From NCBI GenBank assembly GCA_021734255.1, contig JAIPJM010000012.1, positions 12,291-76,290 of the forward strand: 64,000 nt of DNA, in the 5' to 3' direction. The stretch is from Fidelibacterota bacterium (lineage in GTDB: Bacteria > Fidelibacterota > UBA8477 > JABMPR01). The position numbers and the translations under genes were made by a program. Below are positions 10,616 to 64,000 of this stretch, one piece after another. Below the pieces are notes generated by a model. That model had not been told where the DNA came from and ran no database searches. It worked only from the letters and a program-made list of their open reading frames with translations. The stretch's first letter is position 1. Each line of letters opens with the position of its first letter.

Positions 10616-11935
10616 ATGTCACCCAAAACCCTGACCATGATCACCGGGATAAGCCTATTACTAATATCCTGTGTTCAAAATAAACCACAGCCAACGCCTG
10701 CTGAGGGCAACCAACTAAAAACAGGAAGCGTGATCTTCATTCATCCCGATGGCGTCGGCGCAAACACCTGGAACGCGCTCCGCGCATTCAAGGTCGGACC
10801 GGATGCCATGCTGAACTGGGACCGCATGGAAAAGATGGGTGTCTACCGCAGCCACCAGCTGGATGTTCTCGGTACCAGCTCCAATGCCGGTGCAACTGCC
10901 CATGCCTTTGGCGTTAAGGCAGAATACGACGACTATGGGATCGACCCGGATCGACCGATCAATGCCCTTTCTGGAAAGCCCCTGAGTCTTATGCAAGAAG
11001 CGATGGCTGCGGGTATGTCAGTTGCAGCAATCAATACGGGTCACATCAACGAACCGGGCAGTGGTGTTTATCTGGCCAGCGCCAAATATCGTAAATACAA
11101 TGATGAGATCGCAGAGAAGATCATTCGCTCTGGCGCCGACATTCTTCTCAGTGGTGGTGAAAAATTTCTGCTCCCTGAAGGTGTGGAAGGACAGTTCGGA
11201 CCAGGTGGCAGGCAAGACAGTTTGAACCTGATCGAGGTCGCCCAGGCGAATGGCTACACCGTCGTTTATAATCGCACTGACTTTCTGGCACTACCCACCA
11301 ATGTGGAAAAGGTCCTTGGTGTTTTCGCGCATATTCACACCTTTGACGACCGTAGTGAAGAAGCGCTTGCCGCTGACAATTCCCCCATGTATTCACCCAA
11401 TGCTCCCAGTCTGGTGGAGATGATGGAGGTAAGCCTGCGGATCTTATCTTCGCGTCCCGAACCCTTCCTGATCGTCATGGAAGAAGAGGGCACTGATAAC
11501 TTTGGCAATCACCTGAACGCTACCGGGGTTTTCGAAGCCCTGGGTCGAGCCGATGACGCCATCGGTGTGGTTCTTGAGCATATCGAGGCTAACCCCAACA
11601 CACTGCTCGTGGTCGCTTCCGATAGTGATGCCGGGGGATTGCAGATCGATTTCATTAAAGAAAAAAATTATGGGAAACCTCTAGCTGCAAACACCTCGAG
11701 TGGGTCAGCCCTGGATGGGAAAGACGGGACAGGCTCCCTGCCCTTTACTGCTAAACCTGATCAATACGGAACTGAGTTTGAATTCAGTGTCTGCTGGTCA
11801 ACCAGCCACGATGTGTATGGGGGCGTCATTGCGAAAGCCCACGGTCTCAATGCATCCCGCCTACCCAATAATGTTGACAACACAGATATCTATCGTGTTA
11901 TGTATGCCACGCTTTTTGGAAAATGGCTACCGTAG
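10616..11935 (+). CDS. alkaline phosphatase-family lipoprotein (PhoA-like, divergent)
   Basis: Lipoprotein signal (LLISC). IHPDGVGANTW and GTSSNAGATAHAFGVK resemble the PhoA metal-site and Ser-nucleophile motifs. The assignment is at family level only. Confidence 0.55.
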   Translation: MSPKTLTMITGISLLLISCVQNKPQPTPAEGNQLKTGSVIFIHPDGVGANTWNALRAFKVGPDAMLNWDRMEKMGVYRSHQLDVLGTSSNAGATAHAFGVKAEYDDYGIDPDRPINALSGKPLSLMQEAMAAGMSVAAINTGHINEPGSGVYLASAKYRKYNDEIAEKIIRSGADILLSGGEKFLLPEGVEGQFGPGGRQDSLNLIEVAQANGYTVVYNRTDFLALPTNVEKVLGVFAHIHTFDDRSEEALAADNSPMYSPNAPSLVEMMEVSLRILSSRPEPFLIVMEEEGTDNFGNHLNATGVFEALGRADDAIGVVLEHIEANPNTLLVVASDSDAGGLQIDFIKEKNYGKPLAANTSSGSALDGKDGTGSLPFTAKPDQYGTEFEFSVCWSTSHDVYGGVIAKAHGLNASRLPNNVDNTDIYRVMYATLFGKWLP

Positions 11936-12064
11936 TATACAAATCGAAGTATGACACCGTTCAGCGCAGACAGTTGCCCCTAAACGAAAGTCCAACTTTA
12001 ATCTTACTCGCCAACTAAATTGCCTTCTGTCCACATATAAAACCAGGCATAAGGGGTCTTCCAT

Positions 12065-12970
12065 ATGAATGCAATCAATCTTGACAGCATCACAAAATCC
12101 TTCGATGGATTTACGGCCGTGGATGCGCTCTCACTGCAGGTGCCAACGGGGAGTATCTATGGATTTATTGGCCCCAATGGATCTGGTAAAACGACGACGA
12201 TCCGTATGATCATGAATATCTTCTATCCCGACTCTGGAACTATTCAGATCTTTGGTGAACCCCGCAAAAAGAGCCACTCTGACCGCATCGGATACCTGCC
12301 TGAAGAACGCGGGCTGTATAAGAAAATGAAAGTGCGGGAGCTGCTCAAATTCTATGGGCAGCTCAAGATGGGACGTTCTGTCGCCAGCGAGGTAGACCTG
12401 TGGCTCGAAAAACTGGAGTTGAGTGAGTGGGGCGATAAGAAGGTTGAGGCCTTAAGCAAAGGCATGAGCCAGAAGGTTCAATTTATCGCTACCGTCATCG
12501 CCAACCCGGACCTGGTTATCCTGGATGAGCCCTTCAGTGGGTTGGATCCAGTGAATACCAATACGCTCCTGGAAGCCATGCTGGACCTACAAAAAAACGG
12601 CAAAACCGTCATTTTTAGCACCCATGACATGGCCACGGCAGAGAAGGTGTGTGACTATATATTCATGATCCATAAGGGTAAGAAGGTCCTGGACGGGACC
12701 CTCAATGAGATCCAGGACAAATATGGAAACGACACCCTACGGATACGCTGTGAGCAGGAAGCGCGCAGCCTGGAGTCCATTGATGGTATTGAAAAAGTTC
12801 ACAATTTCGGCCAGCAACAGGAGCTCAGGATGAGACAGGGGGTGGACCATCAGGACATTCTCAAGGAGTTGATGAAGTCAAACAAACTCATCAGCTTTGA
12901 GCTTATGAAGCCATCACTACACGATATTTTTGTGCGAATTGCCAAGGCTCCGGAGGTGGCAAATGTATAA
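12065..12970 (+). CDS. ABC transporter ATP-binding protein
   Basis: Walker A GPNGSGKTT, signature LSKGMSQK, Walker B ILDEP. Confidence 0.85.
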   Translation: MNAINLDSITKSFDGFTAVDALSLQVPTGSIYGFIGPNGSGKTTTIRMIMNIFYPDSGTIQIFGEPRKKSHSDRIGYLPEERGLYKKMKVRELLKFYGQLKMGRSVASEVDLWLEKLELSEWGDKKVEALSKGMSQKVQFIATVIANPDLVILDEPFSGLDPVNTNTLLEAMLDLQKNGKTVIFSTHDMATAEKVCDYIFMIHKGKKVLDGTLNEIQDKYGNDTLRIRCEQEARSLESIDGIEKVHNFGQQQELRMRQGVDHQDILKELMKSNKLISFELMKPSLHDIFVRIAKAPEVANV

Positions 12971-14273
12971 GGTACTGAGACTCACCTTACGCGAGTATGT
13001 GGCTGCGGTAAAGACAAAAGGCTTCATCATCGGATTACTTTTGGCCCCCGTTTTCATGAGCGGAAGTATTATTGCCATGGCTTTGTTAAAAGATCATGTG
13101 GATACCCGTGCCCGGAATATTGCTGTCATTGATCAGTCGGGACAACTCGTCCAGGTTATCGTTGAAGCAGCGGAGCACAGAAACCAGAACGAGATCTTTG
13201 ATGAGGAAACGGGTGAACAGATACAACCAGAATACCTCATCCAGCAATTGGAAACTGAAGCTGATCTTCAAGCCCAGCTCAGCGATCTCTCCAACCAGGT
13301 GCGGGAAGGAGCGTTGCATGCCTTCTTGCTTATTGAACCAAGTGTGGTGCATCCCAATGAGGATCCGGAAAATGCCCAGATCAATTATCACGCAGAAAGC
13401 GCCGCCCTGGACGATATCAGGGGCTGGTTGCGCTGGCCGATCAATAATGAGCTGCGACGGCTTAGGCTAAAAGAAGCCGGGGTTGAAGAAAGCGATATCC
13501 CTGACCTCTTTTTCTGGGTCAGTGTCAATGCCACTGGTCTGCTCGGCATGGATGAGGAAGGCAACATCATCGATGCTGAAGAGACCAATGAGGCACAGGC
13601 GATTGCGGCCCCACTTATCCTGGTCATGTTCATGTTTATGATGGCCATGATGGGAGCGATCCCCCAATTAAGTGCGGTTATGGAAGAGAAGACCCAGAGA
13701 ATTGCGGAAGTCCTGCTTGGCTCCATATCACCCTTTCAGTTCATGGCCGGCAAGGTACTTGGAGGGCTGGCTGTTGCCCTGACAAGCATTCTTGTTTATG
13801 TGGGCGGCGGTATCCTCTTCATGGAATGGCGTGGACTATCCAGCTATATTCCCTATGATGTCCTGCCCTGGTTTTTGGCTAATGCTGTTTTTCTGATCTT
13901 CATGCTGGGATCCATGATGACGGCTCTGGGATCAGTTGCCAATGACGCCAAAGACGCACAGTCACTCTCATTCCCGGCCTTACTGCCCATGATGATCCCC
14001 ATGTTCACCCTCGTGCCAGTCATGAAGGAACCCCTATCCAGTTTTTCCACCTGGCTGTCTCTCATTCCGCCATTTACACCCATGGTCATGACCCTTCGAT
14101 TATCCACACCAGTTACCATCCCAGCCTGGCAACCCTGGGTCGGTCTGATAGGTGTTATTCTTTTCACGCTTCTGGTCATGTGGGGTGGCGCCCGCATTTT
14201 CAGGACGGCTATTCTCATGCAAGGTGTACCACTTAAGTTTTCAAATATCATGAAATGGATGACAAAGGGCTAG
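12963..14273 (+). CDS. ABC-2 family transporter permease (NatB-like, large extracytoplasmic loop)
   Basis: ATG at 12963 follows GGAGG and overlaps the ATPase stop (ATGTATAA). One N-terminal TM, a ~170 aa loop, then 5 TM helices. Confidence 0.75.
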   Translation: MYKVLRLTLREYVAAVKTKGFIIGLLLAPVFMSGSIIAMALLKDHVDTRARNIAVIDQSGQLVQVIVEAAEHRNQNEIFDEETGEQIQPEYLIQQLETEADLQAQLSDLSNQVREGALHAFLLIEPSVVHPNEDPENAQINYHAESAALDDIRGWLRWPINNELRRLRLKEAGVEESDIPDLFFWVSVNATGLLGMDEEGNIIDAEETNEAQAIAAPLILVMFMFMMAMMGAIPQLSAVMEEKTQRIAEVLLGSISPFQFMAGKVLGGLAVALTSILVYVGGGILFMEWRGLSSYIPYDVLPWFLANAVFLIFMLGSMMTALGSVANDAKDAQSLSFPALLPMMIPMFTLVPVMKEPLSSFSTWLSLIPPFTPMVMTLRLSTPVTIPAWQPWVGLIGVILFTLLVMWGGARIFRTAILMQGVPLKFSNIMKWMTKG

Positions 14274-14281
14274 GAGGAAAT

Positions 14282-14818
14282 ATGCCTGTACAAGCCACAA
14301 TTATCTGGGAGAAAATTAAGGGGAAAACCAGAACCTTTGGTTTCAAGTACAGCTCAAAAATTGAAGGTATCATTAAACAAAAAGGTCTCTGGAGCACAGA
14401 GTGTACCGGTACGATTGGTAATCGGGAGATCGTGATCAAGCGTGATCATTTGAATAAGCGCTACCTGCGCATCTATGATGCGAAATCAGAAAAGACCCTG
14501 GCCAGGATCCGCGTGTACTGGAAAGATTTTCAGCGAAACCGGCTGGAATTTGAAGATGGCAAAGTGTACTACTTCAAGTCCTATGATCTTTTCCGGGGTG
14601 CCTGGAGTTGGGTGGGCGAGGACTCCCAACTTGAACAATTCATCTTCCGTGTTGATGGTCTCATGCATCGATCTGGACTGATTGAGGATAAATCAAAAGA
14701 CCTCTCAGCTCTGGAAAGAGATGTGCTACTGCTGTTGGGGTTGAATCTTCAGCGCTTCTACAATGTTTGGTTGATGACCATTGCTATCATTCTGATACTG
14801 ATCATCACCGACCACTAA
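14282..14818 (+). CDS. hypothetical protein with C-terminal TM anchor, translationally coupled to ABC-2 permease
   Basis: AGGAGG RBS 8 nt upstream of ATG at 14282. No recognisable domain. C-terminal helix WLMTIAIILILII. Confidence 0.5.
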   Translation: MPVQATIIWEKIKGKTRTFGFKYSSKIEGIIKQKGLWSTECTGTIGNREIVIKRDHLNKRYLRIYDAKSEKTLARIRVYWKDFQRNRLEFEDGKVYYFKSYDLFRGAWSWVGEDSQLEQFIFRVDGLMHRSGLIEDKSKDLSALERDVLLLLGLNLQRFYNVWLMTIAIILILIITDH

Positions 14819-14933
14819 GTCCAAAGCGGCCGGGGAACCTCAGAATAATCACAGCCTAGACGATACTTGGTGCAGCTGATTGTAGGATCAGCTGCAATAT
14901 CTCTGTTGATTGACCCGCTACTGAAAGCGGGAG

Positions 14934-16463
14934 CTATTCGCCAGTTACCTTGTGCCAGACATTTCCTACAATCAATGTCACGGTGGTTCCGATCAGCGTA
15001 TACCAGGTCCAATTAACCAAGGCTGGTTTCCCCAGAAACATGGGAATCAGAATGATCATTAGCATTACAACGATCCCAGCTGTAAATCCAACAATGGCAC
15101 TGGTCTGCTTGGGACCTTTAAAGAGCACACCCAGCAGGAAGGTCCCCAGTAATCCACCGTAGGTAATGCTGGCGATCCCCAGCGCGATCTCCACGACTGA
15201 AGCCAGCACATTGATGAACAGTAGGGCCACCGACGACAGGACAACGGCCCAGAAAATGGTTAGCATTCTGGAAACCCATAGATCCTTTGTTTCGCTGGTG
15301 TTCTTGCCAAAATAGGGTTTGTATAGATCCATCATGGCCGAGGATGACAGGGAACTCATGCTACCTGCCAGGGTTGACATGGCGGCCGCAAATAAGCCGG
15401 CAATGATAAACCCTTTGACACCGGTGGGCATGTAATTGATGATGAAGAAGGGGAATATTTCATCTGCTTTATGGAATGGTGCTGTTCCAGCCGCCATGTC
15501 CATACCTTTGATCTGAAAAAAGACATATAAGAGTACGCCTACGGTCAAGAAAAGTGCGAACTGGAACATGACGATCACACCACTACCGATGAGGGCTTTT
15601 TTGCTGTCTTTCAAATTTCTGGTTGTCAAGAGCCGCTGGACGATCAGCTGGTCGGTTCCATGCGAGGCCATGGATAGGAAAGTCCCTCCGATAAGCGAAT
15701 TGATCAGCGTGTAGGGCTGTCGGAAGAATTCACCGATACTGGCACCCAGATCTAAATTGAACACTTTGAATTTATTGACGGGTCCAGCCACCTCGATAAC
15801 GGTACTCCACCCATTCGGCAGGGCTCTGAGGATCAAAATACCAGCCAGGAGAGCGCCACCGATGTAAATGATCATCTGAATAAAATCCACCCAGATGATA
15901 CCCTTTACACCGCCTGTGTAGGTATAGATCAGCGTGACGATAGCAATGATAATGATCGAAAGTACGTATATCTCCATGTTCGACCAATTAGCAAAGTAGG
16001 CCGATGTTTTAAAAATAACGGCGATCGGAATAGCAGTAGCAAACAAGCGTACACCATCAGCTGCAACACGGGTGAAGAGAAACACGGTGGAGGCGTAGCT
16101 GCGGGTCTGGTGTCCGAATCTGTTTTCCAACAATTGATATGCAGTACTCAGATTGCCCGTTTTATATGCTGGCAGAAATATGAAACTCACAATGACGCGA
16201 GCGATCAGGTAGCCGATGGTCAACTGCAGAAAGGTCAAGTTAGTCATATAGGCCAGGCCGGGGATGCTGATAAATGTCAATGTGCTGGTTTCGGCGGCAA
16301 CAATGGCAAAGGTCACGGCCCACCAGGGGATATTCGACCCGCCCATGAAATAGTCTTTGATACTCCGTTGTTTACCACCGGAGAAACTTCCAATAATCGC
16401 GATGACCATCAGGTAGCCAACAACGATGAAAACATCCAGTGCCTGAAAACCACTATTCTCCAC
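14934..16463 (-). CDS. sodium:solute symporter family (SSF) transporter
   Basis: 509 aa, ~13 TM, with SSF-type motifs (GG...WW at the N-terminus). Confidence 0.8.
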   Translation of the reverse strand: MENSGFQALDVFIVVGYLMVIAIIGSFSGGKQRSIKDYFMGGSNIPWWAVTFAIVAAETSTLTFISIPGLAYMTNLTFLQLTIGYLIARVIVSFIFLPAYKTGNLSTAYQLLENRFGHQTRSYASTVFLFTRVAADGVRLFATAIPIAVIFKTSAYFANWSNMEIYVLSIIIIAIVTLIYTYTGGVKGIIWVDFIQMIIYIGGALLAGILILRALPNGWSTVIEVAGPVNKFKVFNLDLGASIGEFFRQPYTLINSLIGGTFLSMASHGTDQLIVQRLLTTRNLKDSKKALIGSGVIVMFQFALFLTVGVLLYVFFQIKGMDMAAGTAPFHKADEIFPFFIINYMPTGVKGFIIAGLFAAAMSTLAGSMSSLSSSAMMDLYKPYFGKNTSETKDLWVSRMLTIFWAVVLSSVALLFINVLASVVEIALGIASITYGGLLGTFLLGVLFKGPKQTSAIVGFTAGIVVMLMIILIPMFLGKPALVNWTWYTLIGTTVTLIVGNVWHKVTGE

Positions 16464-16591
16464 AACAACCTCCTCTTTTCATCCAACACACGTCAATAGT
16501 TTTTGTATTTAACCTGAGCAAACAGCTTTGTTTCTCTGCCGCCTCAATCGTTCTGCACTCAATTTTTTGGTTGCCACATCAGAGAGTGTGG

Positions 16592-17068
16592 CTAGCTGGA
16601 AGCCTTCAAATATTTTTCTAAATATTCAAGGGCTTCCCTATATGAATCCACCTTTTTTCCCAGGAACTGGGCGAGGCAGACCTCCTTGGTCACAGAGGTC
16701 TTGCGGAAATCCTCCCGTGCATATATGTCTGAGAGATGCACCTCAACGACAGGAACCTGAATCCCGTCGATAGCATCCCGGATAGCATAGGAATAGTGGG
16801 TTAACGCACCGGGGTTGATAATGAAAGCATCAGCCCATTTACGGCGTCGATGGAGTGTATCAATGATCCGACCTTCGTAATTGGTCTGTATGATCCGGAT
16901 TTCCAGACCCAACTCCCTGGCCTTTTTGCGAATGGCTGAATTGACCTTGTCCAGGGTGAGTGTACCGTATTGTTCAGGATCCCGATTGCCTAAAAGGTTC
17001 AGGTTGGGTCCATGGATGATGAAGATGCGCTTCAGATCCACCCGCTTGATCTTTGATTGGTCTGCCAT
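16592..17068 (-). CDS. aroQ: 3-dehydroquinate dehydratase type II
   Basis: IIHGPNLNLLGNRDPEQYG is the AroQ type II signature. Confidence 0.9.
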   Translation of the reverse strand: MADQSKIKRVDLKRIFIIHGPNLNLLGNRDPEQYGTLTLDKVNSAIRKKARELGLEIRIIQTNYEGRIIDTLHRRRKWADAFIINPGALTHYSYAIRDAIDGIQVPVVEVHLSDIYAREDFRKTSVTKEVCLAQFLGKKVDSYREALEYLEKYLKASS

Positions 17069-17103
17069 GTTACAATCTAAGCGTAGCAGAAAAGAACTGC
17101 ATA

Positions 17104-17136
17104 AATAAAAAAGGCTCTGTTAAAAACAGAGCCTGT
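17104..17136 (-). terminator. rho-independent terminator downstream of lipoprotein gene
   Basis: Hairpin AGGCTCTGTT/AACAGAGCCT (17112-17135). It is followed on the minus transcript by a U-run (A-run 17105-17112 on +). Confidence 0.55.
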
Positions 17137-17154
17137 GAATTCAAATGAATCTGA

Positions 17155-17892
17155 TCAACTCTTGGTGGCCAGTGTTCCTTCTTCCAGGATAACATCGTAT
17201 TGATAGCCGGCTCCAAAATCTTTATTCAAAACCACGGTACCCATGAAAACGACCTCATCACCCACTTTTACCGTTTCCTTGGTTGTCAGGGTAACATCGA
17301 AATTGTCGCCGTGTTTGGTACCATCCTGTAGGTGCACCCAGTTTCTACCCATGATATTGGCGTTAAACTTGGTCACCTTGGCTCTAATGCTCACGGTTTT
17401 GCCGGCATACTTGCCAGGAGAAGCAAAGAGTTCAGCAACGGTTACACCGTCAGATAGTTTGTCCACAGCGATATTGGATTGCTGCTGGATATCTTCACCA
17501 CCATAGGGTGAAACTGAATGTCCTGTCCTGGTCATAGTACTATTTTCAGACTTCAAGAGACCAACAAACCACAAGGATTCGAATGTGCGGTCCAGCTCTT
17601 TTACTTCAAAGTCCTTCATCTCCATTCCCTCGTCAAAGTAGAGAGTCATCCCCACTTCAACAGGTTGATTGGTCGTAGCGATCCAGTACTCTTTTCCATC
17701 TTCTGTCACCCTGAGGTACATGTAAGAGGGAGCCATGACCACTTCTTCCACATGGATCTTGTGACCAGCTGCCATGGCGGCTTCTTTTGCAGCAGGTTGG
17801 CCTGCATCCGTTGCTTCCACTCGTTCTTTGGAGTCGCAAGCGACCAAAACCATGAGAGCAAGCACGAGAATCATTAATATTTTTAAGCGCAT
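17155..17892 (-). CDS. lipoprotein with internal tandem duplication (two BOF/YgiW-like OB-fold halves)
   Basis: Signal plus lipobox (LVAC). Residues ~55-110 and ~180-235 are alignable (…WI/HL…G…V/F…G…). Confidence 0.55.
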   Translation of the reverse strand: MRLKILMILVLALMVLVACDSKERVEATDAGQPAAKEAAMAAGHKIHVEEVVMAPSYMYLRVTEDGKEYWIATTNQPVEVGMTLYFDEGMEMKDFEVKELDRTFESLWFVGLLKSENSTMTRTGHSVSPYGGEDIQQQSNIAVDKLSDGVTVAELFASPGKYAGKTVSIRAKVTKFNANIMGRNWVHLQDGTKHGDNFDVTLTTKETVKVGDEVVFMGTVVLNKDFGAGYQYDVILEEGTLATKS

Positions 17893-57882: not shown

Positions 57883-59006
57883 GATACGGTTATTTCAGAC
57901 TTATAGTGAACGCCTCGTTGCTCCAGTAAAGCCAGGAGCTTATTAAAACAGGTTTCCGATTTACCCACAAACTCAGGAGGGCTGACACCCGTCTGTCTAT
58001 AATCCCCATCCAGGACCAGACGACTGATAGCTGTGCAGGTATACCCCGTCGTGCGGGACATGGAGGATGCGCCTGTGGCAGCGTCATACCGGTCCAGCAG
58101 GTCATATTGGTAAGACACACTCCGGCCGTTTTCAGTTCCCCGGACCAGGATCTGCATGACAGTGAACTCTTCTTCCGCTTCACCCAGTTTCCATTTTGGA
58201 AAAAGTAGTTGGGTTGTTAGATCGATGGGTCTGATCCTGCTTTCACCAACCTGCATTTCTGTGTAATTAAAAAATCCTGTTTCTCTCAGCACACGCATCA
58301 GTTCTATGTGTCCCGGGTAGCGTAGGGTTTTCTCTTTCATGTTGGGGATGTTCATCGTTTTAATGAGTGTTCTCAAACCATCCGTATTGAAGGCTTCCAG
58401 TTCACCGACACCAGGAAATTCCAGGATCTCCGGTTCCGAAAGTGCTTCCTTCTCGTGCAGTTCACCATTGAGAACCAGACGAGACGGACGTAGATATTCT
58501 TCGATGACATCGATGGGGGAGAACGGTGCCTTGTATTCATAGGGCCATTTGCGCTCCGTCGGTAAGCCGCCCACATAGCAGACAAACTCCTGGACATCCA
58601 TGCGTTCATTATGGTATCCAGCGATGATGTTGCTCATGCCTGGGGCAACACCAGCATCCATGACAGCGACAACCCCTTTCTCCTTTGCCAGCTCATCCAG
58701 GCCAAAGGGGTCTTCTGGAAAGAAGGAGATATCAACGATATCCTTACCGGCCTCAATCACCCATTTCAGGGTCTGATATCCCATGAATCCTGGGACAGCC
58801 CCAACGACAAGATCAGCATCAGCAATGATTGTCTGGACGGCAGCCTTGTCGCTCAGATCAGCTGTTTGGGTCTGGATATTCTGACTGGAAAGTTGCTCAA
58901 GTGCCTGTTTGTCTCTGTCAACTGAAGTGACCGCATGATCTTTGGAAAGGTCAACAGCCATGGTACGGCCGACCATTCCCGCTCCGAGAATAATAATGTT
59001 TTTCAT
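57879..59006 (-). CDS. saccharopine dehydrogenase-family NAD(P)-dependent oxidoreductase
   Basis: MKNIIILGAGMVGRTMAVDL Rossmann N-terminus plus Sacchrp_dh C-terminal domain. 375 aa. Confidence 0.75.
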   Translation of the reverse strand: MKNIIILGAGMVGRTMAVDLSKDHAVTSVDRDKQALEQLSSQNIQTQTADLSDKAAVQTIIADADLVVGAVPGFMGYQTLKWVIEAGKDIVDISFFPEDPFGLDELAKEKGVVAVMDAGVAPGMSNIIAGYHNERMDVQEFVCYVGGLPTERKWPYEYKAPFSPIDVIEEYLRPSRLVLNGELHEKEALSEPEILEFPGVGELEAFNTDGLRTLIKTMNIPNMKEKTLRYPGHIELMRVLRETGFFNYTEMQVGESRIRPIDLTTQLLFPKWKLGEAEEEFTVMQILVRGTENGRSVSYQYDLLDRYDAATGASSMSRTTGYTCTAISRLVLDGDYRQTGVSPPEFVGKSETCFNKLLALLEQRGVHYKSEITVS

Positions 59007-59127
59007 GGGAGTAAATTAGGATGAATCTAGAGCGGATAAACGGTTCTTTTTTAGCCACAGATGCTCACAGATTGATGATGATGCTTGCTCAAAAAAGACC
59101 CCAAGCTCCGGTGCGAATCCAGGGGTT

Positions 59128-59490
59128 TTAAAATACAAATCTTTTAAATTGAACTTTCTGTCTGCCAAAATTTATCAACAGCCCAACACTAACTTTGCTA
59201 GCTTTCAATTCATTTAAGAGTTGTGCTTCATCCTGTTTGTTGTATTCCTTGCTCACTTTTAACTCTACTATCACCTGCCCATCTACTAAAAGATCTGCTA
59301 AATATTTTCCAACCGTTACGCCCTTATATCTGACATCTAACGCAGGCTCCAATTTGACATCATGTCCCCTCTTGCGGAGTTCCACCTGTAAAGACTTTTG
59401 ATAAACTCTCTCTAGGAATCCATAGCCCAGTTCATTGTGAACTTCAAAAGCTGCTCCAATAATGTCTTTTGTTATGTCGAAGTGATTCAC
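59128..59490 (-). CDS. GxxExxY family protein (PD-(D/E)xK-fold)
   Basis: GAAFEVHNELGYGFLERVYQ ... ADLLVDGQVIVELK is the GxxExxY signature. The gene is markedly AT-richer than its flanks. Confidence 0.7.
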   Translation of the reverse strand: MNHFDITKDIIGAAFEVHNELGYGFLERVYQKSLQVELRKRGHDVKLEPALDVRYKGVTVGKYLADLLVDGQVIVELKVSKEYNKQDEAQLLNELKASKVSVGLLINFGRQKVQFKRFVF

Positions 59491-59638
59491 TTACACCTTC
59501 ATGTAGTCATATTCTGTTTTGACACGAAATATTTGATGGCCACAACCACAAATATTCATCTGTGTTTAATCTGTGGATAAAACAGTAGTGTGGCCGAGGA
59601 GACCCGGCTCAATAAATACCGAAATCTGTTAGGTTAGC

Positions 59639-60697
59639 TTATTCGGCGAAGAATTTAGCCTGATCGACCAATTCACGATACTGGGTGACAGGGTTGATCT
59701 CAAAGGCAAGCTGGGCTTCTAAAACCGCCAGGCGCGGTTTTTCTTGAAGCAGGTAGATCTGGGCTCTCAGGGCATGACCATAGTGGTCATCGCTGTTCGT
59801 CAACAAGGCCTGATCGCATTGCTGGAGAGCGGCATCCAGCCATGACAGGCTTTCTTTCTGGGCAAGATCGATGTAAAGTTCAGCCAGGCTGTGGCGGGCC
59901 TCAGTGGCATCAGGGAAGTATTTCAAATAGGTTTTGAGGACATCAATGGCCTCCTTGCTTTCTCTTTCCCGAATCATGAAGTCTACATAAGCGTTCCAGA
60001 CCAGTTGATTCCTGGGCTCCAGTTTTACGGCCAGGGCATAGTTATCTATGATAACTTTATCCTCGACAGCTGTTTTTTCCTGGGCCATTGCCAGTACGCC
60101 GTGTGCTTCACCCTTCATGGGCTCTTCTTTGGTCAAGTCCTGGAGTAGGTCAATCGCTTTGGCATTCTCCTGAGACTTATAGTAGGTCAGGGCTTTCCCA
60201 ACGATGGCCTCATAGTTACCGGGATCGATCTCCAGGGCCTTGTCGAAATGAGCCTGGGCCTGCTCATACAGATCCTTCTCGTTCAGAATGAGCCCTAAAC
60301 TGATGCGCGCTTCTGCATCTTCGCCATTGGCTTCAACTGCCATAAGGTAATAGCGGTAGGCATTCTCATTACTGCCACTCAATTGATAGATCTCACCGAT
60401 ATATCTCAGAATCTTGGCAGAGTCCGCTTTGGCATCCAGGCCTCGTCGGCACATGTTCACTGCCTCAGTCAGGTTTTGGTCGTCGAGAAATAATTCAGCT
60501 GCAAAAAGATAGGCGTCGGTGTATTCTGGAGACGATCTCTGGATTTCCATGAGATAGTTCAATGCCTTTTGCTTGGAGCCAAGAGATGCTTCTGTCTCCG
60601 CTTTCGAAAACAGAACATCCGGGTCCTCGCTGCAAGAAAAGACAAAAACCGTAGCAATAATAGCAAGTATGAGCCAGCGTTGAAGCCCCATAATCAT
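59639..60697 (-). CDS. tetratricopeptide-repeat lipoprotein
   Basis: Signal plus lipobox (VFSCS), followed by ~8 TPR-like repeats. Confidence 0.7.
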   Translation of the reverse strand: MIMGLQRWLILAIIATVFVFSCSEDPDVLFSKAETEASLGSKQKALNYLMEIQRSSPEYTDAYLFAAELFLDDQNLTEAVNMCRRGLDAKADSAKILRYIGEIYQLSGSNENAYRYYLMAVEANGEDAEARISLGLILNEKDLYEQAQAHFDKALEIDPGNYEAIVGKALTYYKSQENAKAIDLLQDLTKEEPMKGEAHGVLAMAQEKTAVEDKVIIDNYALAVKLEPRNQLVWNAYVDFMIRERESKEAIDVLKTYLKYFPDATEARHSLAELYIDLAQKESLSWLDAALQQCDQALLTNSDDHYGHALRAQIYLLQEKPRLAVLEAQLAFEINPVTQYRELVDQAKFFAE

Positions 60698-61088: not shown

Positions 61089-61952
61089 GTGAATGCCCGG
61101 GAGGCATCAAAGCACCCTTTTGCAGCCTATCAGGATTTGTTGATCCGGAAGCGATACAGCCAGAATACGCTGAAGGTATACTGCTCTTATTTTCGTGATT
61201 TTGTGCAGCACTTTGGTGTCGAGCAGATAGACCGTCTGGGCAGGGACGAAATAAATGCTTATATCCTTTGTCTGGTGCGGGAGCGTGATATTTCCCGGAG
61301 TCAGCAGAACCAGCGCATCAATGCCATCAAGTTCTATTATGAAAAGGTCTTGGGCCGGCCGAGGCAGATTTATGAGATTGACAGGCCGAGAAAGAAGGTG
61401 CGTTTGCCACAGGTTTTGTCCAAGCGTGAAATCAGATCAATACTTGGTCAAATTCAGAATCTGAAACACAGGATGATTGTCTCATTATTATATTCTGCAG
61501 GTTTACGACGTTCAGAAGTGCTCAACTTGAAAATTGCCGACATTCAATCTGAAAGATCTGTTTTACGTGTCCGCGGCGCTAAGGGCGGCAAGGACCGATA
61601 TAGCTTATTATCGGAGCAGTTGCTTACAGGGTTAAGGGAATATTATCGCAGTTATCATCCACAGGAGTATTTGTTTGAGGGTCAGGGTGGTGGCAAGTAC
61701 AGTGCGGCAAGTGTGGCAGCTGTTTTGAGGCGGGCTGGGGCAGCGGCCTTAAAAAAGCGGGTGACACCGCACATGTTAAGACACTCCTTTGCCACGCATT
61801 TACTGGAGCAGGGGACGGATTTGCGCTACATTCAGGAGTTATTGGGGCATAGCAGTTCCAAAACAACGGAGATCTACACCCATGTCAGCAATCGTAATTT
61901 AAAAAAGATCAAGAATCCCATCGATGAGATTCTTGATCCTTCGGAAAAGTAA
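61089..61952 (+). CDS. tyrosine site-specific recombinase/integrase (XerC/D-size)
   Basis: R...K...HxxR...Y catalytic pattern (LRRSEV, HMLRHSFATH, LGHSSSKTTEIYTHV). Confidence 0.85.
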   Translation: MNAREASKHPFAAYQDLLIRKRYSQNTLKVYCSYFRDFVQHFGVEQIDRLGRDEINAYILCLVRERDISRSQQNQRINAIKFYYEKVLGRPRQIYEIDRPRKKVRLPQVLSKREIRSILGQIQNLKHRMIVSLLYSAGLRRSEVLNLKIADIQSERSVLRVRGAKGGKDRYSLLSEQLLTGLREYYRSYHPQEYLFEGQGGGKYSAASVAAVLRRAGAAALKKRVTPHMLRHSFATHLLEQGTDLRYIQELLGHSSSKTTEIYTHVSNRNLKKIKNPIDEILDPSEK

Positions 61953-62094
61953 AGATACTCCTCGGATTTGGCAGAATAAATGCAATGTAGAGTGGGCCTA
62001 CAATGAAAATAAATACAATAAACATACACAGACGTTAGCCGTCACTCTAAGAAGTACACTGCAATTTGACAAATAGTTAAACCGAAAGAAGAAA

Positions 62095-63084
62095 ATGAAA
62101 ACAAAAAATAAAATAACCCGAGGGATAACTAAAGACTTTGCAGAGGCATTCAAAAAAAGTGAACTTTATAAGCTTTGGGGAGAACATAAAGATGAATTAT
62201 TTATTGGCGTGAGGAATGATTATCTGAATTTATATTACAATTGTGATAGCATTGCCAAGATTGAATACAAAAAACTAGACAAGAAAATTGATTGCGAAAT
62301 TGATAAGTATTATATAGACGGAAAACATTATAACAGCAAAGACAAAGAAAAACGATATAAAATTGAGCAGAAAGAAATCTGCAAACAATACGAAGTTATT
62401 AAAATGCACAGCAATGATAAAGCAACTCCAGAAAAAAAGGCTCAATCAAAATTAGTTCTCTTAAACAATGAAAATTCAGATTCTAATTGGTTTTGTATTG
62501 ATGTTGAATATGTAAAAGCATTTAATAATAAAGCAGAAAAAAAGGAAGCAGATTTTAATGGACGATTTGATATTATCGCACTTTCCAAAATGAAACCGCA
62601 TAAGGTTGCTTTGATAGAATTAAAATATGGCAGCGGTGCCATAGGAGGCACAAGTGGAATTTACAAACATGTTGAGGATTTTAGCAAATTTTGCGAGAAA
62701 GGTTATTTTGAGGGACAATTAAAACAAGAAATTATTGAAATAGTAAAAAGTCAGAAAGAACTTGGAATAGCAGTGCCATTTAAATCGCCCGAAGAGTTTG
62801 ATATATTAACGCCTGATTTTTACTTTATTACATTAGACAACAATGCTGAAAAAGAAAATGCAAGCACACCTAAACAAACAATGGCAGGCTACCTTTTCAA
62901 TGACAAGCGTTGGGGCTGTAAAAAATTAACAACTAAAGATTCTGTAGAGAAAATGTTTGGTGATATCACAAAGAAAGACAATAAATTTTTTGCCACATTT
63001 TTATTTTCAAAAGCAACGCTTGAAAATATTGGAATTACAGACATAATTGATGGCACTTACAATGAAAGAATTTTACCTGTATGA
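62095..63084 (+). CDS. hypothetical Lys-rich protein with PD-(D/E)xK-like nuclease motif
   Basis: 329 aa, AT-rich. GRFDIIALSK(9)VALIELKYG fits the D...(D/E)xK core. No other recognisable domain. Confidence 0.5.
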   Translation: MKTKNKITRGITKDFAEAFKKSELYKLWGEHKDELFIGVRNDYLNLYYNCDSIAKIEYKKLDKKIDCEIDKYYIDGKHYNSKDKEKRYKIEQKEICKQYEVIKMHSNDKATPEKKAQSKLVLLNNENSDSNWFCIDVEYVKAFNNKAEKKEADFNGRFDIIALSKMKPHKVALIELKYGSGAIGGTSGIYKHVEDFSKFCEKGYFEGQLKQEIIEIVKSQKELGIAVPFKSPEEFDILTPDFYFITLDNNAEKENASTPKQTMAGYLFNDKRWGCKKLTTKDSVEKMFGDITKKDNKFFATFLFSKATLENIGITDIIDGTYNERILPV

Positions 63085-64000
63085 AACTAACAATACATAG
63101 AGGAACAAATCAAATTGGAGGTTGCATAACCGAAATTGAAAGTAGCGGCTATAAGATTTTTATTGACTTTGGCGAACAGTTGCCAGGGACGGAGATTAAA
63201 GAATTGAACCCGATAGATGGATTAACTTGTGGTGACATTTCAAAAAGTGCATTATTCATAACTCACTATCACGGCGACCATATTGGAAAAATTTGCGATA
63301 CTGTTGTTGATTTACCAATATACGTTGGAAAAACTGCACTCAAAATATTTAGTTGTCTCGAAAGCAGATTATCATATATCCCAGACCCAAACGAGTCAGA
63401 AAAACATAAAAAAATTGTTGAGCGTATTAAGACAATCAACACTTTTGAGCAATTACAAAAAATAAGAATCGGAGAAATTACCGTTACACCATTATTAATT
63501 GACCATTCCGCTTTCGATGCTTATATGTTTATTATCGACGCTGATAACAAACGAATACTTCACACGGGCGATTTTCGCGGACACGGATTTAGAAGTAAAG
63601 GACTTATTCCAACGCTAAAAAGCTATGCCAAAAATATTGATTACATAATTTCGGAAGGTTCAAATATTCAACGTCCAAATGCGACAATCCAAACGGAGCA
63701 AGAATTGCAAAAAGATTTTGAATTGCAATTTAAAAACAACAAATACAACTTTGTTTTAGTTTCTTCTACTAATATTGACAGAATATTTGCACTGTACCAT
63801 GCTTCAAAAAATGCAAAACGCTGTTTTGTATGTGACAGTTATCAGACTAGTATTTTAAAAATAGTTTCCGAAAATCATAAGCAATTCACTAAATTTTACG
63901 ATATAGATTTCAACCAAACAAGAAGCCCTGTAGGTCGTTTCTTTGATTTAAAACGTCAAGGACAAAATCCATTTTCTTTCGATGGTAAATTAAAAACGTA
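63083..64000 (+). CDS. metallo-beta-lactamase-fold (beta-CASP/RNase J-like) protein, 3' end outside window
   Basis: ATG at 63083 overlaps the upstream stop (ATGA). Translation MKLTIHRGTNQIGGCITEIESSGYKIFIDFG...ALFITHYHGDHIG...LLIDHSAFDA...ILHTGDFRGHG carries MBL motifs 1-4 in an RNase J-like arrangement. Open to the window end. Confidence 0.6.

Follow-up and report, generated by a model that had tools for sequence, protein, structure and literature searches.

Extent of the low-GC block

The locus described here raises the question of what two predicted nuclease genes are doing in a block of low-GC DNA directly 3' of a tyrosine recombinase gene, and how the block came to be there. In the window, i.e. 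the whole stretch of 64,000 nucleotides analysed, 1-kb windows over positions 1-61999 had a mean GC content of 0.479 (sd 0.023, range 0.424-0.526). Relative to these, the values at positions 62035-63034 (0.309) and 63001-64000 (0.329) corresponded to z = -7.4 and z = -6.5, respectively. The original prediction had placed a sharp fall in GC at about 61960, directly 3' of the recombinase gene, which agreed well with the measured change from 47.9 ± 2.3% to 31-33%. Since no other 1-kb window came near such low values, the drop is considered island-like and atypical of the genome; a drop common across the genome, which had been named as the contrary outcome, was not what we found.

The full locus (L001) was read from contig JAIPGY010000001.1 of a Candidatus Marinimicrobia MAG (GCA_021735485.1). 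The contig extension that had been proposed completed ORF2 at 427 aa, and the low-GC block ended about 150 nt past the ORF2 stop codon. Therefore, the module consists of exactly two genes, and the further genes that had been thought possible are not present. The GC content of the block, hereafter cassette 1 (Table 1), is like that of the low-GC Bacteroidota that host the ORF1-ORF2 module.

Table 1 Features of the recombinase and cassette locus. Positions are those of the window unless marked otherwise.
Feature	Position	Strand	Basis
XerA-like tyrosine recombinase, 287 aa, at the head of the cassette array	61089-61952	+	Pfam, NCBIfam, structure-sequence alignments
attI-like site, ACATACACAGAC-G|TTAGCC, crossover between G62034 and T62035	62022-62040	+	Homology start shared with L004; recurring motif
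Cassette 1, 2486 nt in full, GC 32.5%	62035-64000, onward to window-equivalent 64520; L001 9941-12426	+	G|TT at both ends
ORF1, 329 aa, N-terminal alpha/beta domain and PD-(D/E)xK nuclease domain	62095-63084	+	
ORF2, MBL and beta-CASP nuclease (predicted), first 306 of 427 codons in the window	63081-64000, end at window-equivalent 64364	+	Profile, PDB, Foldseek, motifs
Terminal hairpin site of cassette 1, about 130 nt	L001 12301-12434 (window-equivalent 64395-64528)		Covariance model match

Boundaries of the cassette and its hairpin site

Homology between L001 and a Bacteroidetes locus (L004) starts exactly at ACG|TTAGCCGTCA. The two loci were 93.8% identical in DNA over L001 9927-12417 with no identity outside this span; the G|TT junctions of cassette 1 were common to both, and the DNA beyond them was unrelated. 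The cassette is thus mobile between phyla. In most related loci, the motif ACATAC..ACGTTR lies 30-100 nt past the stop codon of the recombinase; on the given strand of the window it occurred once. Cassette 1 opens with TTAGCCGT, and its own terminal hairpin site has the reverse complement, ACGGCTAA, at the left end. With a covariance model built solely from other genomes, this site scored 104.7 bits (E = 1e-20). The complementarity between a start and its own terminal site held for both cassettes 1 and 2 of L001, and was chained through the arrays in L012, L013, L033, L041, L044, L084, and L089.

The hairpin site family has 17 consensus pairs, 14 of which show compensatory changes; because the sites used for covariation were chosen by a scan demanding 11 complementary bases, the apparent pairing is inflated in the scanned stretch. 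The AAC...GTT ends of the sites are conserved, as are two G.T wobbles on the bottom strand. In 28 of 31 sites, the bottom strand was the stabler of the two when folded (p = 2.6e-5). The two fixed wobbles and spacers of unequal length account for this asymmetry; extrahelical bases, by which a folded single-stranded attC imposes the choice of the bottom strand, do not. Judging from these calculated folds, the site probably folds on the bottom strand. Rfam contained no family for the hairpin sites; its weak miRNA and psbA matches at L001 9803-9854 were taken as chance.

We compared 19 balanced recombinase loci (10 kb on each side) from Bacteroidota and allied phyla (FCB group). Arrays of hairpin sites were observed in 16 of them, and all 76 covariance model matches had a single orientation, 71 lying downstream and 5 upstream of the recombinase. 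The features by which integron cassettes are recognised, namely imperfect palindromes with AAC/GTT ends, a G|TT crossover, and starts complementary to their own sites, were all found, together with an attI-like site. The array has the orientation of the integrase gene, as in the 'inverted' integrons of Treponema and relatives (2016, PMC4889954); unlike the platform here, those integrons have a true IntI with the additional domain and canonical attC sites. No recombinase gene was located within ±8 kb of the L004 array, and three loci (L006, L008, and L010) had the ORF1-ORF2 pair without a terminal site, suggesting that the pair also moves, or persists, by other routes.

The recombinase next to the cassette

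The recombinase matched Phage_integrase (4e-38) and also Phage_int_SAM_4 in Pfam, and exceeded the cutoff of the NCBIfam model NF040815, recomb_XerA_Arch (230.5 bits, cutoff 220). Against the integron-integrase model TIGR02249 it scored 216.9 bits, under the cutoff of 265, with the match split in two. XerA (4a8e, 5hxy; NF040815) was the best sequence match, at full length and without insertions, the archaeal enzyme 4a8e aligning end to end with no gap. When aligned with IntI4 (2a3v), recombinase residues 16-186 and 210-279 corresponded to IntI4 11-181 and 249-318, and IntI4 residues 182-248 were skipped, only 23 recombinase residues corresponding to them; therefore, about 44 residues of IntI-specific insertion are absent. 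The integron definition for IntegronFinder relies on an integrase with an IntI-specific domain of about 35 residues near patch III (Cury et al. 2016), a domain that this recombinase lacks. Hence, the gene originally called an integrase does encode a tyrosine recombinase, but a XerA-like one without the IntI signature rather than a generic integrase. Likewise, the linkage of the low-GC DNA to this gene stands, whereas what had been supposed to be a generic integrase island is one cassette of defined extent, which ends in an attC-like hairpin and was inserted at an attI-like site.

The job of XerA is chromosome dimer resolution at dif, whereas the recombinase here has an attI-like site and an array of cassettes as its neighbours. 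Several copies of the recombinase family can occur per genome (L037, L043, and L056 are in one MAG). Because canonical integrases recognise attC through the IntI domain, which this protein lacks, it is solely from the conserved linkage that we infer this recombinase to be the enzyme that moved cassette 1.

A Xer-like recombinase without an IntI signature would also suit an ordinary island, brought in through a phage-type integrase or Xer/dif-type recombination, with the palindromes being transcription terminators, a role that hairpins could serve, or repeated extragenic elements. We regard this explanation as highly improbable, since the L001/L004 homology ends exactly at G|TT on both sides and neither direct-repeat att sites nor a tRNA or dif-like target were seen. 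The start-to-site complementarity chained through the arrays, the conserved ends with a covarying stem and two fixed wobbles, and the strict orientation and downstream placement of the sites also argue against it. The platform carrying cassette 1 instead appears to be an undescribed integron-like gene-capture system run by a Xer-type recombinase.

Two coupled genes for predicted nucleases

The ATG of ORF2 (63081-63083) runs into the TGA of ORF1 (63082-63084), and so the predicted ATGA overlap is real; the ORF2 start had been put at 63083, two bases off the true start at 63081. Wherever both genes were intact, they were adjacent with an overlap of 4-10 nt (8 of 9 contexts). Furthermore, the protein P0291 is a natural ORF1-ORF2 fusion whose MBL part shares 40% identity with ORF2 (E = 4e-76). 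ORF1 and ORF2 form a two-gene operon that is probably translationally coupled.

ORF1 contains the core D159-x15-E175-L-K177, which was invariant in 45 homologues. The nuclease-like core that had been proposed was therefore correct in kind, its spacing being x15 and not x13. The alpha-beta-beta-beta-alpha-beta core with the conserved D...(D/E)xK places the protein in the PD-(D/E)xK superfamily, and ORF1 is a PD-(D/E)xK fold nuclease in its predicted activity. Shedu SduA, Hachiman HamA, Upx, and NucS have the same restriction-endonuclease-like core with D...ExK, and NucS and SfsA likewise have an N-terminal domain ahead of the nuclease domain. Only chance-level matches to ORF1 were obtained in Pfam, NCBIfam, PADLOC, PHROGs, and PDB sequences, and those to EVE (E = 0.056) and neocarzinostatin (E = 0.14) were disregarded. 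In other ORF1-family proteins, the fusion partner is another nuclease, REase-ARP/PDDEXK_13, and ORF1-family domains also occur fused to the DNA-binding modules HTH and alpha-CTD-like HhH. A literature search for REase-ARP found nothing.

In ORF2, the predicted order of MBL motifs was confirmed (H62-x-H64-x-D66-H67, H142, and D164), and H371/H375 and H398 lie in the part beyond the window. D29, HxHxDH 62-67, H142, D164, E192, H371/H375, and H398 were invariant among 38 homologues. ORF2 thus has MBL motifs 1-4 and an inserted beta-CASP domain with motifs A, B, and C. Its score was 28 bits against Lactamase_B_2, and its best PDB sequence match was EF2904 (2az4, E = 5e-14). A structure model was made for P0121, a 93%-identical proxy of ORF2 (pLDDT 85.5), and Foldseek matched it to 2az4 (E = 1e-21, TM 0.68), followed by RNase J, CPSF73, IntS11, and TTHA0252; the full-length matches to EF2904, RNase J, and CPSF73 had TM values of 0.62-0.69. 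These proteins share with ORF2 the two-domain MBL and beta-CASP fold and the metal-binding and A/B/C motifs at about 20% identity. We know of no function for EF2904, whose structure was solved in 2005. The anticipated RNase J-like MBL/beta-CASP identity is borne out: ORF2 is a compact protein of this kind, near EF2904 and RNase J, with nuclease activity predicted from motifs and model.

A housekeeping RNase J, the outcome that had been named as speaking against a defence cargo, was ruled out. The RNase J models scored far below their cutoffs (TIGR00649, 47.3 bits against 400; NF047419, 40.6 bits against 820), and ORF2, at 427 aa, is shorter than the RNase J chains of the PDB (about 555 aa) and lacks the RNase J C-terminal domain. 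Unlike RNase J, it occurs in a variable, mobile context with no conserved chromosomal surroundings and always with an ORF1 partner. The Pfam label 'Anti-Pycsar_Apyc1' on ORF2 homologues was faint and reflected merely the shared MBL fold. A phage anti-defence reading was dropped because no ORF1 relatives were present in IMG/VR (2.9 million viral contigs) or PLSDB plasmids, nor were any in PHROGs.

Defence neighbourhoods and a proposed role

The comparison of gene neighbourhoods suggested in the original prediction placed named defence genes within 8 kb of the pair in 7 of 9 independent contexts, a qualitative count (L004, L006, L008, L010, L091, and L092, with L093 less clear). L001, the locus of the window itself, had a diversity-generating retroelement (DGR) only, and L005 is a variant of L004. 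The neighbours included type I R-M with an AbiL-like pair, BREX (twice), GmrSD, Mrr, McrBC, AbiE, HEPN/NTase, WYL, HipA, and Fic/Phd. No PADLOC-DB 2.0 HMM matched ORF1, the ORF2 part, or the full-length ORF2 proxy, consistent with the claim that the pairing corresponds to no named system. In the literature, for which coverage was incomplete so that the result is suggestive only, we found neither a named system matching the pair nor Xer-type integrons in FCB phyla. As for the predicted horizontally acquired defence cargo, the horizontal part is borne out by the DNA identity to a Bacteroidetes genome, and the defence part stays a prediction from genomic association. No self/non-self element, such as a methyltransferase or a sensor, was visible.

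Most probably, the pair constitutes an anti-phage module of two nucleases that has yet to be named. The fuller account, a mobile two-gene cassette captured at an attI-like site by a XerA-like recombinase and encoding a two-nuclease module against phages or mobile elements, seems to us reasonably probable. In this account, cassette 1 was captured by site-specific recombination directly 3' of the recombinase gene in a Candidatus Marinimicrobia chromosome. We infer the defence function, substrate, and order of action as follows. ORF1 and ORF2 would act jointly, most likely as a complex, with ORF1 recognising and then nicking or cutting the nucleic acid of an invader, or else a nucleic-acid structure that phage induces. 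ORF2 would then degrade this nucleic acid in the way of those beta-CASP enzymes that start at phosphorylated ends and proceed 5'-to-3'.

As the characterised enzymes nearest to ORF2 in structure (RNase J, CPSF73, IntS11, and TTHA0252) are ribonucleases, the target could be RNA and the outcome abortive infection. An RNA-targeting abortive-infection or TA-like module, in which ORF2 degrades cellular or phage RNA once ORF1 releases or activates it, would persist by addiction or by killing infected cells and not by cutting foreign DNA. TA and Abi modules typically consist of two genes in tight translational coupling, integron arrays often contain TA-like cassettes, and HEPN/NTase, HipA, Fic/Phd, and AbiE are among the neighbours. 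However, the catalytic PD-(D/E)xK set of ORF1 is complete and invariant and hence unlike that of a simple antitoxin, the ORF1-family fusions (HTH, alpha-CTD-like HhH, and a restriction-endonuclease-type nuclease) point to DNA, beta-CASP enzymes include the DNases Artemis and SNM1, and 329 and 427 aa are large for a TA pair. We therefore consider this module type rather unlikely, with an appreciable chance nonetheless. A role in DNA repair or processing without immunity, for example a NucS/EndoMS-like endonuclease that joins an exonuclease of the SNM1/Artemis type in processing cross-links, hairpins, or mismatches, is improbable; under it, the presence in defence islands would be incidental, since islands are sinks for horizontally transferred DNA.

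Comparison with known systems

Anti-phage systems are carried as gene cassettes in mobile and sedentary chromosomal integrons (bioRxiv 10.1101/2024.07.02.601719, 10.1101/2024.07.02.601686). With these, cassette 1 shares compact promoter-proximal genes of putative defence function, a palindrome with AAC...GTT, and the G|TT crossover, and the arrays likewise lie beside a tyrosine recombinase and an attI site. In contrast to integrons, the recombinase here lacks the patch-III insertion and its gene is oriented as the cassettes are. The sites are long near-perfect stems in which two fixed G.T wobbles replace the extrahelical bases, many with a common conserved core of about 65 nt. The cassettes are multi-gene and large (2.5 kb for cassette 1 and 3.6 kb for cassette 2 of L001), and the hosts belong to the FCB group, in which IntegronFinder-based surveys report few or no integrons. 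Current integron-finding tools would probably miss such XerA-like platforms.

MBL nucleases paired with trypsin-like proteases occur in HamM, Avs1, Lamassu, and DRT (PMC12799240), and Cas14 of type VII CRISPR-Cas is a beta-CASP enzyme (PMC13069675). These are precedents for MBL-fold nucleases as immune effectors, whereas ORF2 has neither a protease partner nor a CRISPR association, and the HamM-type nucleases are ComEC-like MBLs, not beta-CASP proteins.

We put forward tentatively that the locus combines a new widespread two-nuclease anti-phage system with an unrecognised integron class of the FCB group. ORF1 might then be the sensor and ORF2 the effector, and ORF2 would be the first beta-CASP protein to serve as a defence effector on its own, outside type VII CRISPR-Cas. 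Hairpins of about 135 nt might be recombined by a XerA-like enzyme that has no IntI domain, the strand being chosen through the two fixed G.T wobbles. Such platforms might occur in Bacteroidota, Ignavibacteria, Marinimicrobia, Calditrichia, and Chlorobi, and might stockpile multi-gene cassettes, including whole defence systems and a complete DGR.

Should the pair confer protection from phage, the defence repertoire would gain a compact system of two nucleases whose effector belongs to an unusual class (beta-CASP), and EF2904-like proteins would acquire a function. Integrons have been defined by the IntI insertion and canonical attC sites, and in surveys on that definition Bacteroidota are essentially without integrons; here, a Xer-type recombinase without the insertion heads arrays that show an integron-like logic in many FCB-group genomes. 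These arrays would carry multi-gene defence systems across phyla, cassette 1 itself being 93.8% identical between Marinimicrobia and Bacteroidetes. If true, integron-type gene capture would extend to major environmental and gut phyla, a natural experiment on a Xer enzyme recognising folded DNA without the IntI domain would be at hand, and a diversity-generating retroelement would be mobilisable as a cassette.

Other cassettes at L001 and L004

Cassette 2 of L001 is a complete DGR. The site after it has 53 nt and was undetected by the full-length covariance model; it is taken as a site on the basis of the shared arm sequence, the AAC/GTT ends, and a cassette start complementary to it. For a third cassette in L001, no terminal site with the expected left end TTTTTCCAAC was found, and the low-GC tail at L001 16056-17650 is thus without a defined end. 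This tail encodes a TPR protein and a membrane protein.

At L004, the flanking cassettes carry PADLOC PDC-M62 A and B and an MBL-protease pair, and neighbouring cassette genes gave strong PADLOC matches to PDC-M62 and LmuA/Avs1a/RTasMBL. The HamM-type MBL in the next cassette of the L004 array was clearly distinct from ORF2.

Nuclease pair in a mobile cassette

The GC content of 1-kb windows over positions 1-61999 was 0.479 ± 0.023 (range, 0.424-0.526), whereas it was 0.309 at 62035-63034 and 0.329 at 63001-64000, which are 7.4 and 6.5 sd below that mean, respectively. The sharp drop after the recombinase gene, originally judged by eye, was thus confirmed, and it was unmatched by any other stretch of the window. 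The locus was extended (as L001) through an exact match to ORF1 on JAIPGY010000001.1 (GCA_021735485.1; 111 kb), from a Candidatus Marinimicrobia (Neomarinimicrobiota) MAG. Here the low-GC block ended approximately 150 nt after the ORF2 stop codon, indicating that the module consists of exactly two genes and not of further genes beyond the window edge, as the original prediction had allowed. The ATG of ORF2 overlapped the TGA of ORF1 as described, but at 63081; the start formerly placed at 63083 is out of frame. The core motif of ORF1 was D159-x15-E175-L-K177 and not D-x13-ELK. Separately, a gene for a PDDEXK_3-family protein preceded the recombinase gene by about 1.6 kb, in a region of lower GC (0.432 for 59001-60000).

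Coordinates of the features at the locus (window position = L001 position + 52094)
Feature	Window	L001	Remarks
PDDEXK_3-family protein gene	59128-59490 (-)		120 aa
XerA-like tyrosine recombinase gene	61089-61952 (+)		stop codon ends at 61952
ORF1 (PD-(D/E)xK nuclease fold)	62095-63084		329 aa
ORF2 (MBL/beta-CASP nuclease fold)	from 63081	10987-12270	427 aa
Hairpin site after ORF2		12301-12434	
Cassette 2 (DGR: target gene with VR, bAvd, TR, RT)	64521-68149 (equivalent)	12427-16055	beyond window
Rfam RT-7 motif match		14246-14379	sub-threshold
Low-GC tail (TPR and membrane protein genes)		16056-17650	beyond window; GC 34.7%

The flanks of the module carried an integron-cassette signature. The sequence ACATACACAGAC-G|TTAGCC was found about 80 nt past the recombinase stop codon, and ORF2 was followed by an imperfect palindrome of approximately 130 nt, GGCTAAC-AA-AGGCTATATGCAATAAGGG ... 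CCCTTACTGCACATAGCCT-CAACC-G|TTATCG. The segment so bounded (cassette 1) opened with TTAGCCGT, whose reverse complement formed the left end of the cassette's own palindrome; likewise, the start of the next cassette, TTATCGGTA, paired with TACCGATAAC.

Comparison with L004, a Bacteroidetes locus (HGW-Bacteroidetes-5, PHDC01000001.1), was decisive for a discrete mobile cassette. L001 9927-12417 had 93.8% DNA identity to L004, with homology beginning at ACG|TTAGCCGTCA, ending at ...CG|TTA, and absent outside this span. Cassette 1 comprised 2,486 nt with a GC content of 32.5%, and that of the L004 locus was similar (~31%). The nuclease operon, with its two genes, thus forms the cargo of a mobile cassette that was recently exchanged between phyla, in line with the horizontal acquisition proposed originally. 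A conventional genomic island would be a poor fit.

In L004 (3050-16984), four hairpin sites bounded three multi-gene cassettes, in the order PDC-M62 A+B (Septu-like, with an IS element inserted there in sister contigs), ORF1 and ORF2, and an MBL nuclease with a trypsin-like protease and an AAA_35 STAND protein. No recombinase gene was found within the 8 kb fetched near this array.

In L001, the module was followed by a complete diversity-generating retroelement (DGR), whose variable and template repeats were identical at 160 of 198 positions and differed almost exclusively at template adenines. Its edges were G|TT junctions together with a short 53-nt hairpin site, to which the cassette start was complementary. 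Our search found no paper linking a DGR to integron cassettes. Between bAvd and the template repeat, the Rfam RT-7 motif gave a hit of 61.8 bits (E = 1e-12), below its gathering score of 116.8. The low-GC tail, encoding a TPR protein and a small 181-aa membrane protein, also began at a G|TT junction, with no recognisable terminal site ahead of the core cbb3 oxidase genes that followed.

Hairpin sites and the Xer-type recombinase

The sites of this family were about 135 nt long (e.g., L089 12412-12546, at a locus of a recombinase relative). Compensatory changes were observed at 14 of 17 consensus stem pairs, in sites picked by a scan that itself required 11 complementary bases. Two stem positions 5 nt apart were fixed (23/28 and 26/28 sites) as A.C mismatches on the top strand, equivalent to G.T wobbles on the bottom strand, and folding was more stable for the bottom strand than for the top at 28 of 31 sites (p = 2.6e-5). 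The spacers were unequal, with 0-4 nt after AAC and about 2-3 nt more before GTT. The fixed wobbles and unequal spacers may constitute a strand-choice device unlike the extrahelical bases of canonical attC sites. Among ten sources searched with a covariance model trained only on sites from other genomes, the site after ORF2 scored highest (104.7 bits, E = 1e-20); the model further detected the four L004 sites and found nothing else within the window. No Rfam family covered these sites.

The recombinase was alignable end to end with archaeal XerA; relative to the Vibrio integron integrase, approximately 44 residues were missing exactly at the IntI-defining insertion. Relatives with 52-65% identity were collected at 79 loci (L012-L090) from Bacteroidota, Ignavibacteria, Neomarinimicrobiota, Calditrichia, Chlorobi, and others. 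When the recombinase strand was scanned for AAC-stem...stem-GTT, 62 sites were obtained in 320 kb downstream versus 15 in 602 kb upstream. In a balanced subset of 19 loci, with 10 kb available to either side of the recombinase gene, the covariance model gave 76 matches, all in one orientation; 71 were downstream and 5 upstream, and 16 loci carried arrays. This recombinase family, in which the IntI insertion is missing, was thus found at the head of same-orientation site arrays throughout FCB-group genomes. Complementarity of start and end was chained between consecutive sites in seven arrays, and in a Mesonia array the sites were placed exactly between ORFs. An attI-like motif, ACATAC..ACGTTR, was present downstream of the recombinase gene in most loci, and the module sits at such a site. 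Many MAG contigs stopped 0.1-3 kb past the recombinase gene (L012, L015, L018, L024, L025, L038, and others), as expected if assemblies broke at repeated hairpin sites; such arrays may therefore be under-represented. Taken together, the platform is probably integron-like without being a canonical integron, and the adjacent recombinase would be the mover of the cassettes. This Xer-type platform, with its distinctive hairpin sites and its cassettes of several genes, was absent from the databases and literature searched, and there is a substantial chance that it represents a new integron class.

Predicted properties of the two proteins

Matches of ORF2 to MBL models were weak, and its best solved relative by sequence was EF2904 (2az4), whose function is not known. 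The model of P0121, a full-length homologue 93% identical to ORF2 (pLDDT 85.5), superposed over its full length on EF2904, RNase J, CPSF73, IntS11, and TTHA0252 (TM 0.62-0.69), and all MBL and beta-CASP motif residues of ORF2 were invariant. These structural matches bear out the beta-CASP/RNase J-like reading of the original prediction, while RNase J itself was ruled out by a score of 47 bits against a cutoff of 400. ORF2 is accordingly predicted, from fold and motifs, to be a compact beta-CASP nuclease distinct from RNase J.

Homologues detected numbered 568 for ORF1 and thousands for ORF2, and relatives with 70-95% identity were scattered over Bacteroidota, Spirochaetota, and Ignavibacteria. 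The two genes were adjacent with a 4-10 nt overlap in eight of nine contexts examined, the MBL gene having decayed in the ninth, and P0291 was a natural ORF1-ORF2 fusion. Other ORF1-family proteins encoded by stand-alone genes (P0255, P0256, P0266, P0272, and P0294; loci L094-L096) were fused to a REase-ARP/PDDEXK_13 nuclease. The ORF1 domain was therefore always accompanied by a second nuclease, which appears interchangeable, and ORF1 and ORF2 probably form one functional unit. One of these fusion genes was preceded by genes for a WYL regulator and an RNase_T-type exonuclease.

Those structural relatives of ORF2 that have been characterised are RNases, which makes an RNA-directed module, of abortive-infection or toxin-like type, the main alternative to DNA-directed defence. 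Still other ORF1-family proteins carried an N-terminal HTH or alpha-CTD-like HhH domain, which points to DNA. We suggest that the pair serves in defence against mobile DNA, phage included, in which ORF1 would recognise and cut the target nucleic acid and ORF2 would degrade it from the ends left by cutting. A repair function would fit poorly.

Defence-associated neighbourhoods

Relatives of the module occupy defence islands and defence-cassette arrays. Their neighbours included type I R-M with an AbiL-like AAA_21/RloB pair, BREX (in two independent contexts), GmrSD, Mrr, McrBC, AbiE, HEPN/NTase, PLD, and WYL regulators. The flanking genes differed in every context examined, by which a housekeeping role was excluded. 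No relatives of ORF1 were found in IMG/VR viral contigs, PHROGs, or PLSDB plasmids. As anticipated, the pair resembled no named system: neither protein matched a PADLOC 2.0 model, though neighbouring genes did, and the pair was absent from the databases and literature searched. Defence by nucleases and defence cassettes carried on integrons have both been described before; in the searchable literature, the MBL nucleases named in defence are all protease-activated enzymes of the HamM/Avs1 type, and the one beta-CASP effector named is Cas14 of type VII CRISPR-Cas. At L091, which holds another copy of the module, a single hairpin site of the family (579-713; 64 bits, E = 9e-12) was observed at a distance of about 7 kb from that copy; the site lay on the opposite strand and adjoined an AbiE pair.
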